Assembly: GCA_024233625.1 (NCBI GenBank)
Contig: JACKPJ010000004.1
Location: forward strand, 91,905 to 155,904
Reading direction: 5' to 3'
Source of the DNA: Deltaproteobacteria bacterium
GTDB taxonomy: Bacteria > UBA10199 > DSSB01
DNA length: 64,000 nt
This document shows, one piece after another, positions 22,011-24,056 of this stretch. The translations under genes were made by a program, and so were the position numbers. The notes under the pieces were generated by a model. It saw only the letters and a program-made list of their open reading frames with translations. It ran no database searches and was not told the origin of the DNA. Each line of letters begins with the position of its first letter. The stretch's first letter is position 1.

Positions 22011-24056
22011 ATGGCAAGTATCGACAATAAAAAAGAATACCAATCGAGTGTTTTTCCATCCTGTGATGAAGTTGAATTAGTTTGTTCAAGTGAAGAGCCT
22101 ACAGTGTGTGAGTCTGAACTTGTCAGCCTGCCAGAAGATCACTATCCTCAATTGACGTTAACTGACGATTATTTTTTACGTGTTGATTTGCTAGATTACT
22201 ACGAGCATACAGAAACTGAGGAAAAACATCTTTGCTCCGAACAAAAAAAAGACGAGTCTGGGCAGGTCAAGACCTTTTGGAAGATGTCCCGGGTTTTCTT
22301 TGAAGATATGCAAAAGAAGATTATTCCCGCCTGTGATGAAGTTCCAGCAATTGTAGGGCCAGTGAAAGAAGTTGAAGGAAATCTCCAGATTGTCCAAAAA
22401 GCCGGCAAGAGCAGCTATGATATCGCTTTAGGTGATGCCTGGATTTTTGCTCGTGATTATGTCGATCAGCTTTTCCCTGAGGGAGTCGATCGTCTTAAAA
22501 TCGGCCAGCAAATTTGTGTCAAGCAAAGCGTTGACGACAATGGCAACGAGACCCTGGTTTGGCGCATGGCAAAGTCTTTTTACGAAACTTTGGTTCAAAA
22601 TGAGAGCCCTGAGCTGGGTAGCTTGGATATATTAGATGCGATGCCGGGAGCGGAAGAAACAAGAGGTTTATTAAATACCCCTTTTGAACCTGTCCCTAAC
22701 ACCGCGTTTGACACTGAGTGGATTCCTTTGGGCTATCTTTCTGAAGCTGAGGCGGCTCGTGCGCGCTATAAATTTGGAGCGACTGGAGAGCGAATTGATT
22801 GGATACGGCAAGCGAATTCTCCAGGAGAAGATGGAAAGGCTTTGTATTATGTTTCAGTGCGTATTGCTGAAAAAGGCGCTCTCGAGTGGGAAGCCGAGTT
22901 GGCCGTTGTCCAAAGTGGAGCCTACGGAGCGAGTGCAGAAGACGGATTGCGTGCTGCGAAATTGCGTGAGTTATTAAATCAGCAAGTGTTAATTCATTCG
23001 GCTCTAAAAAATCTTCCTGACTTGCCAGTAGATCTAAATCAGTTTTCAGAAAATTTTTGGCAGGGTTGTGATTTAGAAAACATCGAGGGGCAGCAAGCTG
23101 AGTATATTGCTAGCTCCTTTCAGGATCTTGATCGCAATGACTATGAGCTGATAGGAGATCTTTATCCTACTGAGCGCTTGATGACGCTGGGTGCTCTTAA
23201 ATGTCGCAGTAATGATTTTGAAAGTGATGGGTATCGTTGGCGTAGTGCTCGACTCACTTATGAGTGGATTTGGAAAGATGTTATTGGAGAAGAAGATCTG
23301 CAAAATATTATGGTTTGTGACTCTAATGAACTCGCAAGTGCAGCTCAAAAAAAAGGTCTAATGACCTGTTATGTCAAAAAGGACGCAGCAGGCCGACAAT
23401 GGAATGGCTTAGTTGAAAGCACTCAAATCGCAGCAGCAACTGATGGAATCGACGAAGTTGAGAAGCAACGCCGTGAGAAAGTCGTTACTATGTTTGAGCA
23501 AGCCAAATTAAGAGTTGAGACCAAATCCAGTTATTATAATTTTAAAGTTCATGGTGTCCCAATTGCAGAAGCTTTTGTCGGTATCGGCTTGATACCTGGA
23601 GCTGCAGCGGCAGCTTATAAATATCGCAAAGAACTCGCAGCTACAGCCTCCGCTGCTAAGATATGGATAAAAAATAAGTGGAATGGCCCCAAGGGTGGAA
23701 CTGGATCAGGCGGCGAGGGTGGCAGCTCAGATGAGCCGAGAAGGTCTTCTGATGCAAACAAAGAATACCGAGCTCTGCAAATCCGCAAACCCCAAATTTT
23801 CTCAGGTCGCGAGGTAAGTCCAGGAATCAACTGGATGGCCGGTGCCAAGACACTCGGTTGGGGACTGACGACCATTGGCGCGGGAGCTCTCACAGTCGTT
23901 TTAGGTGCGGGTACAGGTGCGGCAACGCTTTGTCCAGCCGATGGTCCCTTAGGTGAAGCAGCTTTGGGTACCGCCACAGTTTCTACGGCAGGTTGGACCG
24001 CGGCAGGTGCAGCAGCGACAGGAGCCTCTTTTATGATGTTTTTAGATAGTTTTTAA
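22011..24056 (+). CDS. P6 (681 aa): repeat-containing protein with C-terminal Gly/Ala-rich glycine-zipper membrane region
   Basis: I chose the ATG at 22011, which has a GAGGAAG RBS and lies 16 nt after the P5 stop; the 21915 start would overlap P5. Has repeated 'xDxxGxxxxxW(K/R)M(S/A)(R/K)xF(F/Y)E' modules. Hydrophobic segments are 'FVGIGLIPGAAAAAY' and 'GWGLTTIGAGALTVVLGAGTGAA...AGWTAAGAAATGASFMMF'. Confidence 0.7.
   Translation: MASIDNKKEYQSSVFPSCDEVELVCSSEEPTVCESELVSLPEDHYPQLTLTDDYFLRVDLLDYYEHTETEEKHLCSEQKKDESGQVKTFWKMSRVFFEDMQKKIIPACDEVPAIVGPVKEVEGNLQIVQKAGKSSYDIALGDAWIFARDYVDQLFPEGVDRLKIGQQICVKQSVDDNGNETLVWRMAKSFYETLVQNESPELGSLDILDAMPGAEETRGLLNTPFEPVPNTAFDTEWIPLGYLSEAEAARARYKFGATGERIDWIRQANSPGEDGKALYYVSVRIAEKGALEWEAELAVVQSGAYGASAEDGLRAAKLRELLNQQVLIHSALKNLPDLPVDLNQFSENFWQGCDLENIEGQQAEYIASSFQDLDRNDYELIGDLYPTERLMTLGALKCRSNDFESDGYRWRSARLTYEWIWKDVIGEEDLQNIMVCDSNELASAAQKKGLMTCYVKKDAAGRQWNGLVESTQIAAATDGIDEVEKQRREKVVTMFEQAKLRVETKSSYYNFKVHGVPIAEAFVGIGLIPGAAAAAYKYRKELAATASAAKIWIKNKWNGPKGGTGSGGEGGSSDEPRRSSDANKEYRALQIRKPQIFSGREVSPGINWMAGAKTLGWGLTTIGAGALTVVLGAGTGAATLCPADGPLGEAALGTATVSTAGWTAAGAAATGASFMMFLDSF

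Follow-up and report, generated by a model that had tools for sequence, protein, structure and literature searches.

A rare C-terminal domain, predicted to form a helical hairpin, in a protein embedded in an array of ORFan genes

Introduction

The TH8-TH9 hairpin of diphtheria toxin, as well as those of colicins and Bcl-2 proteins, is built from a pair of long apolar helices with a short turn between them, in which acidic residues are conserved (PMC4417968). Membrane proteins secreted by type III and type IV secretion systems (T3SS and T4SS) avoid targeting to the inner membrane by an intermediate hydrophobicity; targeting by the signal recognition particle (SRP) needs an apparent free energy of insertion (ΔGapp) below zero (PMC6110835). 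Depolarising toxins with a C-terminal domain rich in small residues, such as TelE and EsxX, also exist. The protein described here, referred to as P6, shares some features with each of these systems. It is encoded on the forward strand (22011..24056) of a 64,000-nucleotide stretch of DNA, hereafter the window, from a Deltaproteobacteria bacterium (assembly GCA_024233625.1, contig JACKPJ010000004.1, positions 91,905 to 155,904). The last 74 residues of P6 (608-681) define a rare, so far unannotated protein family, and they are predicted to fold as an antiparallel hairpin of two ~33-residue helices with an acidic, proline-containing tip.

Results

The C-terminal domain defines a protein family

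The conserved domain (residues 608-681, 23832..24053, + strand) comprises helix 1 (608-640), the acidic tip CPADGPLGE (641-649), and helix 2 (646-680), and the window holds a single copy of it. Searched exhaustively with phmmer, 1.84 billion representative proteins yielded ten relatives, with E-values from 2e-19 to 4e-4. All of them match P6 only at residues ~600-681 and always at their own extreme C-terminus, their N-termini being unrelated and their lengths ranging from 100 to 691 aa. The whole family counts about 15 otherwise unrelated proteins (P followed by four digits refers here to members, and L followed by three digits to loci). The additional members are L013:1044-1676, a second copy in tandem with P0011; P0012, which is 73% identical to P0004; and two stand-alone short forms, L007:51-338 (95 aa) and L008:7597-7776 (59 aa), scoring 43-46 bits on the hidden Markov model (HMM) of the tail. 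In L013:451-1676 (and also in L014), two short hairpin-tail genes, of 192 and 210 aa, are arranged in tandem 14 nt apart, each with a hydrophobic segment near the N-terminus.

Twelve columns of the family alignment are invariant (G618, T621, T628, G632, T635, P646, T656, A660, T663, A667, F677, and S680 in P6), and three further positions, W608, P642, and L652, are nearly so. The resulting pattern, about 80 aa long (alignment A1), can be written as W...G(W/Y)G..T......T...G..T ... P.(D)GP..E ... T...A..T...A ... F..S. With the family HMM, P6 obtains 110 bits, and it possesses all twelve invariant residues, P6 itself being among the sequences from which the HMM and the alignment were built. Since the GC content of the loci harboring these genes spans 29-57%, the family appears to be taxonomically wide but sparsely sampled.

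No match to the hairpin tail was found in Pfam, NCBIfam, PADLOC, PHROG, or PDB, and the relatives gave only noise against Pfam and NCBIfam at E <= 1. A profile of the tail retrieved nothing significant among PDB sequences. A word-index search with the tail alignment also returned no matches, but it missed the known members too, low-complexity words crowding the candidates.

Predicted structure of the hairpin

Two AlphaFold runs were performed, on full-length P6 and on residues 500-681, with 11 sequences aligned over the tail in each. Both of them yielded a helix at 608-640, a five-residue turn, and a helix at 646-680, with a predicted local distance difference test score (pLDDT) of ~65-79 when the whole protein was modelled and of 71-77 for the shorter piece. 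The initial annotation, made from the sequence alone, had read the end of P6 as a membrane or pore-forming region and had indicated AlphaFold as a check: the C-terminal region was indeed modelled as a helical hairpin, but this stands isolated and at moderate pLDDT, and the first hydrophobic segment, upstream of it, remains below 50. A Foldseek search with both models against PDB gave no match at E <= 0.001.

Conservation in both helices has a period of 3.5 residues (permutation p = 0.017 and 0.0006, respectively); therefore, each helix shows a single stripe of invariant small residues (Gly/Thr/Ala), as would be expected for tight helix-helix packing in the predicted hairpin. The turn reads CPADGPLGE in P6 and DPIPGDE in other members. 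The tip has a net charge of -1 to -3 and no basic residue in 11/13 members (-2 or -3 in ten of them), with the caveat that for P0003 and P0005 the search pattern took a different segment; its flanks are neutral to basic. The helices of P6 are nearly devoid of charged residues over ~30 residues each. Aromatic residues are located by the starts of the helices (W608 and G-W/Y-G at 616-618) and near the C-terminal end (F677).

The initial annotation had assigned GxxxG/AxxxG glycine-zipper spacing to this region. Such spacing is not there: residues 601-681 contain 0 canonical motifs, scored as [GAS]xxxGxxxG or GxxxGxxx[GST], a single GxxxG versus 2.5 expected from composition, and 12 small-xxx-small pairs versus 15.8 expected. 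The tails of the ten relatives contain 0-2 GxxxG and 0-1 zipper motif, and the only formal zipper matches of P6 fall in the disordered Gly/Ser linker GGTGSGGEGGSS (559-571). The tail of P6 is thus not a glycine zipper, its conserved small residues being instead heptad-spaced (i, i+3/4).

Hydrophobicity was estimated crudely, by adding up Hessa biological-scale values over 19 residues irrespective of position. The best values for P6 are +2.5 kcal/mol in helix 1 and +3.8 kcal/mol in helix 2. Over the family, the values are +0.5 to +2.7 for helix 1 (+4.0 in P0006) and, where listed, +2.9 to +4.0 for helix 2, helix 1 being the most hydrophobic stretch in most members. In P6, the Kyte-Doolittle averages are 1.2-1.65, and residues 608-681 have a grand average of hydropathicity (GRAVY) of +0.82. 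The sums neither prove nor rule against membrane insertion.

The P6 gene and the regions upstream of the hairpin

P6 is a real gene. The coding sequence (22011..24056, + strand) consists of 681 codons plus the stop that ends at 24056. The preceding gene, Pe (19391-21994; 867 aa), ends 16 nt before the ATG of P6, a proximity already noticed in the initial annotation and readily seen in the sequence. A Shine-Dalgarno sequence, GAGGAAG (21999..22005, + strand), was read directly 5 nt before the ATG; it lies within the 16-nt gap after the Pe stop, which suggests translational coupling. The gene call in the public database starts at a GTG (21915), giving 713 aa and an 80-nt overlap with Pe; the ATG at 22011, with its Shine-Dalgarno sequence, is the likelier start. 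The same gene also turns up in sequencing run SRR12358676. In the region after P6 (~24190-24225), the stability of a putative terminator hairpin was the same as that of shuffled sequences (z = -0.2), and a terminator scan gave no match there.

The protein has an isoelectric point (pI) of 4.7 and a net charge of -34; the pI is 4.5 for residues 1-510 and ~10 for residues 511-607. Four parts can be distinguished: an acidic soluble region (1-514), a helix of weak hydrophobicity (515-536) with a basic patch after it, a probably disordered linker rich in Gly/Ser, and the 608-681 domain. Direct reading of the sequence revealed no hydrophobic N-terminal stretch and, therefore, no Sec, Tat, or lipoprotein signal. 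P6 matched no family of Pfam or NCBIfam at E <= 0.1, a word-index homology search retrieved P6 itself as the sole match, and no relatives were found among viral contigs, plasmids, PHROGs, and PADLOC, so that an origin from a phage, a plasmid, or a known defence system is unsupported. The one match from a scan of GTDB genomes, in a Flavobacteriales metagenome-assembled genome (L001), was discarded as a chance one, having been picked via the 8-mer FFEDMQKK and with an alignment that crosses a stop codon.

All the peptides quoted in the initial annotation are found in P6 where it had placed them, as for FVGIGLIPGAAAAAY (522-536), GPKGGTGSGGEGGSS (559-573), and the Gly/Ala/Thr region (616-677). 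The weakly hydrophobic helix, named TM1, corresponds to residues 515-536 (GVPIAEAFVGIGLIPGAAAAAY; 23553..23618, + strand) and is followed by the basic patch YKYRK. The basic flank and the Gly/Ser-rich, probably disordered linker, as judged from sequence and AlphaFold models, extend over residues 537-607 (23619..23831, + strand). The hydrophobic segment previously pointed out is present but weak: IAEAFVGIGLIPGAAAAAY / FVGIGLIPGAAAAAY reach ~+5.6 on the Hessa scale, a value summed by hand and above the +5 cut-off of the hydrophobicity scan, in a portion whose pLDDT is the one below 50 mentioned above. A TM1-like helix, a basic patch, and a Gly/Pro-rich linker precede the hairpin in P6, P0002, P0004, P0012, P0007, and P0008, and the motif (W/Y)xx(F/W)xxxG(L/V)P(I/F)G of TM1 is common to P6, P0004, P0007, P0008, and P0002. 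Short forms, P0011 among them, have in place of these elements a hydrophobic stretch close to the N-terminus (residues 9-27, with a sum of +4.8).

The N-terminal region of P6 harbors a tandem duplication. Module A (residues 11-100, 22041..22310, + strand) starts with FPSCDEV and ends with KKDESGQVKTFWKMSRVFFEDM; module B (residues 101-194, 22311..22592, + strand) starts with IPACDEV and ends with VDDNGNETLVWRMAKSFYETL. Their Smith-Waterman alignment scores 80, compared with 35.7 +/- 4.8 (maximum 50) in 200 shuffles, none of which reached 80. Hence, the two "clear" copies recognized initially are genuine, and the unit is longer (~92 aa) than the ~33-aa pieces then noted; it begins with (F/I)P(S/A)CDEV and closes with the stretch D-x-x-G ... 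W(K/R)M(S/A)(R/K).F(F/Y)E. The remaining part of the acidic, soluble region (residues 195-514, 22593..23552, + strand) holds the two "weaker" copies (~273-295 and ~453-472), which by sequence are at chance level and unsupported (scores 25 and 34 versus ~29 +/- 5 shuffled); moreover, an HMM built from the two good copies retrieved nothing further in P6, in the window, or in the related loci. A low-confidence AlphaFold model (mean pLDDT 48) shows the same element, a beta-hairpin plus a helix, at all four sites (E74-80/E86-92/H94-108, E168-174/E180-186/H188-196, E262-271/E277-284/H291-301, and E453-457/E463-467/H470-505); at this confidence, a shared fold element is suggestive only. The N-terminal region had no relatives in the exhaustive protein search and no match among PDB sequences.

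The gene array around P6 and around its relatives

P6 is embedded in an array of acidic ORFan genes, all on the + strand. Upstream are located Pa (10577-12259), Pb (12333-14003), Pc (14159-16432), Pd (16647-19385), and Pe (19391-21994), whose products mostly start with "MP" and without exception have a basic extreme C-terminus; downstream come Pg (24246-25424) and Ph (25498-27294), whose termini show these traits as well. Since no more than 5 nt separate Pd from Pe, and 16 nt Pe from P6, these three genes are probably co-translated. Pg, the next gene downstream of P6, follows after 189 nt and matches no known immunity family. P6 and its seven neighbours gave no credible match in Pfam, NCBIfam, PADLOC, and PHROGs.

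By paralogy, the neighbours divide into two sets, with Pa/Pb in one and Pc/Pd/Pe/Pg/Ph in the other; W.(K/E)H..L.AL.(I/L)VLTG recurs as a central motif of Pc, Pd, Pe, and Ph, and the similarity of Pg is to Pd, in its C-terminal third. All seven are acidic overall, 5/7 start with "MP", and 6/7 have a net charge of +4 to +6 in the last 15 residues (Pe has +5 over the last 40). The tails of Pa-Ph are rich in RGR/RGK (AT-hook-like or resembling nuclear localization signals (NLS), e.g., KPRGRGPGG in Pd), with an SG(I/F/L)(V/I)SE motif before the tail. P6 shares none of the "MP" start, the basic C-terminus, and the central motif; its first residues are MASID and its last FLDSF, the final 15 carrying a net charge of -1, and neither BLASTP nor HMM comparison shows similarity to the neighbours, in agreement with the initial statement that P6 lacks their terminal modules.

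A comparable organization recurs elsewhere. In the window, L003/L016-18, L005, L009, and L004, the long-form hairpin genes are located 16-113 nt downstream of a gene for a large, basic-tailed ORFan protein. Around P0004, in L003, there are three MP-start genes, one of which is cut by the contig end, and the two complete ones are basic-tailed. The neighbour in L005 is a 2248-aa protein ending with ...SGRKGRKK, that in L009 lies 20 nt upstream and encodes a 545-aa protein ending with ...RRRRPAVEGK, and that in L004 ends with ...KKTPPPRPK. In L016-L018, P0012 lies among seven proteins paralogous to one another (330-387 aa; one upstream, six downstream), most of which have an MPI start and an ...RGK/...RVK end, at a spacing of 21-25 nt. 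Considering all array proteins, a basic tail (ending with K, R, or H) is found in 17/19 versus 5/59 of the other proteins (Fisher p = 6e-11) and an "MP" start in 12/19 versus 1/59, although paralogs within a locus are not independent observations in these counts and the pattern is represented by ~6 independent lineages. The embedding of the hairpin genes in arrays of fast-evolving proteins that are alike only at their termini points to an uncharacterised gene system in rarely sampled bacteria, whose array proteins are at present plain "hypothetical proteins".

Other genes were observed near members of the family. The P0012 paralog array (L018:793-10489; the same in L016 and L017, partial in L003) has a PhdYeFM/ParE toxin-antitoxin pair just upstream, and a Pkinase-TPR-GAF-sigma54 fusion regulator lies near it in L016. 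ATPase genes of the AAA_14 type (PF13173), L009:3003-4187 and L015:1942-2286, precede hairpin-tail genes at a short distance in two loci unrelated to each other, and toxin-antitoxin-type genes are present in L006 (HI1420-type) and L002 (VapC-like). The AAA_14 and toxin-antitoxin-type neighbours hint at accessory-genome islands.

Genomic context of the window

The rest of the window is ordinary chromosome, with genes for MeaB, methylmalonyl-CoA mutase, a beta-oxidation operon, BipA, UvrB, PPDK, and a tripartite ATP-independent periplasmic (TRAP) transporter. Neither the 64-kb window nor the loci fetched for the relatives yielded secretion-system genes, and the window has no tRNA, rRNA, or Rfam matches. 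UvrB, BipA, methylmalonyl-CoA mutase, PPDK, and thiolase are each alone in their 90%-identity cluster among ~15 billion proteins, and UvrB is ~60-64% identical to the proteins of Firmicutes, Pseudomonas, and Azospirillum alike; the source of the window appears to be a rarely sampled lineage. The GC content at third codon positions of the array genes (0.26-0.37) is somewhat below that of the housekeeping genes (0.41 +/- 0.05). A gene on the - strand (61994-63409) encodes a 471-aa protein with a C-terminal FHA / Yop-YscD_cpl-type domain and an extreme net charge of -70. A TRAP transporter solute-binding protein beside a TAtT "T-component", and two adjacent genes for lactonase-like seven-bladed beta-propellers, were observed at 47580-49534 (- strand) and 53666-56118 (+ strand).

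Discussion

A possible membrane role for the hairpin

Taken as a whole, these features are best read as those of a tail that is a membrane-inserting, self-packing helical hairpin, with P6 thereby acting as the membrane component within the array; a probability of about 0.4 can be given to this reading. According to it, the hairpin would insert post-translationally into a lipid bilayer, tip first, would pack or oligomerise via the small-residue stripes, and would fix the variable N-terminal domain of P6 at the membrane surface. P6 would be the sole integral-membrane member of a co-transcribed array, whose other products, Pa-Ph, would be soluble and acidic and would reach the same membrane surface by means of short C-terminal tails of polybasic or amphipathic character; such basic or hydrophobic endings might plausibly work as peripheral membrane-targeting devices. 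We infer the insertion, the oligomerisation, and an interaction, physical or functional, of P6 with the array proteins, and the membrane might be either the cytoplasmic one of the cell itself or that of a target. In the initial annotation, P6 had been regarded as a possible membrane partner of the soluble paralogs. The conserved tail, the predicted hairpin, and the recurrence of basic-tailed arrays in independent lineages speak for such a partnership; the low hydrophobicity does not, and the zipper label does not hold.

Several points weigh against this membrane model. Every segment sum is above 0 kcal/mol (+2.5, +3.8, and ~+5.6 in P6), so the segments of P6 are less hydrophobic than SRP/Sec-inserted or ordinary bacterial transmembrane helices, and a soluble or merely peripherally bound state is compatible with these values. 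The structural confidence is moderate, the alignment behind it comprises 11 sequences, and PDB offers no structural analogue. By jackhmmer and hhalign, the array proteins of the window are not detectably homologous to those beside the relatives (hhalign probability < 20%), so that what is co-conserved is an architecture and not a set of orthologs; moreover, paralogs within one locus do not count as separate observations. The short-form members have no basic-tailed array neighbours. Lastly, to our knowledge, no route is known for inserting a three-helix protein that lacks a signal peptide and has an N-terminal domain of 510 aa.

The least probable of the alternatives weighed here is that the tail is a soluble antiparallel coiled coil, similar to an "Ala-coil", working as an oligomerisation or docking hairpin, or else a partly disordered low-complexity tail. 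Positive hydrophobicity sums throughout (+2.9 to +4 for helix 2) and a pLDDT of merely ~70-77 would fit it, and heptad-spaced small residues are typical of tightly packed soluble Ala-coils as well. Nevertheless, a GRAVY of +0.82 over nearly charge-free helices is not in keeping with a soluble coil, nor is the charge pattern of an acidic tip with basic-leaning flanks, which is membrane-like. The same can be said of the Trp/Tyr residues at the helix starts and of the Phe near the C-terminal end, a placement that is usual at membrane interfaces.

If the hairpin does enter a membrane, it might do so as a permeabilising toxin module, bacteriocin- or effector-like, that oligomerises into an ion-conducting pore and has immunity or accessory proteins as neighbours. 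This is considered unlikely, although the acidic tip and the marginal hydrophobicity are reminiscent of the hairpin with which the T domain of diphtheria toxin inserts (PMC4417968), toxins of the TelE and EsxX kind set a precedent, and the hairpin gene of L018 is followed by six tandem paralogs, a layout also known from immunity-gene arrays. The mini-hairpins L007:51-338 and L008:7597-7776 are each followed within 22-29 nt by a TsiV/DUF3396 gene (Pfam E = 4e-27 and 6e-45), an adjacency that is the sole positive hint of a toxin-immunity link and concerns the short forms only. DUF3396 proteins have been shown experimentally to provide immunity to VRR-Nuc effectors of the secretion system of type VI (T6SS) (PMC9635880), that is, to a nuclease and not to a membrane toxin, and jackhmmer and hhalign show none of the array proteins, which are large (392-912 aa) and placed on both sides of P6, to be related to TsiV. 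Within 64 kb, P6 has neither a recognisable immunity gene nor genes of a T6SS or of a secretion system of type VII (T7SS), and the protein itself lacks LXG, PAAR, Rhs, CdiA, FHA/TPS, MIX, or any other delivery domain and a canonical glycine zipper in its tail. Furthermore, in the hairpin family it is the C-terminus that is conserved and the N-terminus that varies, the reverse of polymorphic toxins. As a separate observation, the two mini-hairpin/TsiV pairs (L007:51-1348 and L008:7597-8734; PF11876) may represent a novel kind of toxin-immunity pair, or else the immunity gene may be an orphan, and they offer a simple experimental handle on the toxicity of the module.

Another explanation, to be regarded as about as doubtful as the toxin one, is that P6 and its array neighbours are exported by a dedicated secretion system whose genes lie elsewhere; the hairpin would then enter a prey or host membrane as Inc proteins or translocators do, and the "MP" starts and basic tails of the neighbours would be export or targeting signals. 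Such a role would suit a bilobed hairpin with a short turn, and arrays that are fast-evolving, lineage-specific, acidic, and conserved at their termini alone. The sums of P6 lie above the ΔGapp < 0 of SRP targeting, as do those of secreted transmembrane effectors (PMC6110835), the ΔGapp values of that work having been computed otherwise than the Hessa sums used here. The genome of L016 has Pkinase-sigma54 fusion regulators, as in Myxococcota-like predators, if the taxonomic link we infer is right. Nonetheless, neither the window nor any of the fetched loci contains a secretion-system gene, a chaperone, or a known signal, the basic tails match no defined secretion signal among those testable, and the context is one of chromosomal housekeeping genes.

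Going beyond the proposed membrane anchoring of P6, hairpin-tail proteins and "MP-start, basic-tail" ORFans might together constitute an unrecognised multi-gene system of several distant bacterial lineages (locus GC 29-57%), in which the hairpin protein would be a dedicated membrane pore, translocator, or receptor for the tail-bearing proteins encoded with it. This is quite improbable, though not as much as the soluble coil; if true, it would represent a new system of the delivery or toxin-immunity type, possibly of predatory or host-associated bacteria.

Comparison with known systems

The depolarising toxin domains, of glycine-zipper type, of the LXG effectors of T7SS (TelE, EsxX, TspA) and the similar ionophoric toxins of T6SS and of contact-dependent growth inhibition are, like the tail of P6, small-residue-rich, weakly hydrophobic, and located at the extreme C-terminus; the tail of P6 is likewise predicted to be helical and could self-associate in a membrane. 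Unlike TelE, EsxX, and TspA, P6 has no GxxxGxxxG, no LXG/PAAR/Rhs/CdiA domain, no nearby secretion genes, and no Pfam, NCBIfam, or PDB match, and in its family the tail is conserved and the N-terminus variable.

With the diphtheria toxin, colicin, and Bcl-2 hairpins, P6 has in common the two long apolar helices and the short acidic turn (PMC4417968). However, those hairpins are buried in a soluble bundle of 8-10 helices, whereas no such bundle is predicted for P6 (nor was any Foldseek match obtained), whose hairpin forms the very C-terminus of the protein after a disordered linker.

The transmembrane effectors of T3SS and T4SS, such as the chlamydial Inc proteins, SseF, SipB, and the Legionella effectors with transmembrane domains, have a bilobed segment of two helices with a short loop. 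The model of P6 predicts the same bilobed arrangement, H608-640 and H646-680 with ~5 residues between them, and the crude sums of P6 place it, as these effectors, above the ΔGapp < 0 of SRP targeting (PMC6110835). Differences also exist: no T3SS/T4SS genes or chaperone were seen in the window or in the loci, the hairpin of P6 is C-terminal and theirs is N-terminal or central, and, unlike in Inc proteins, its sequence is conserved over lineages of 29-57% GC.

The tails of the neighbours, in which basic and hydrophobic residues alternate, can be compared with the C-terminal membrane-targeting sequences of MinD/FtsA type, from which they differ in that several of them are also RGR/AT-hook-like or NLS-like; an amphipathic helix in these tails is putative. 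As for P6, the role proposed here is close to that of tail-anchored proteins, in which a C-terminal device attaches to the membrane a soluble protein without a signal peptide; unlike them, P6 has a hairpin plus an upstream helix and not a single transmembrane helix. If the membrane reading is true, the hairpin would be a new sequence-defined family among the few C-terminal devices that place soluble proteins in membranes, and one that uses a heptad stripe of Gly/Thr/Ala and not a GxxxG zipper.

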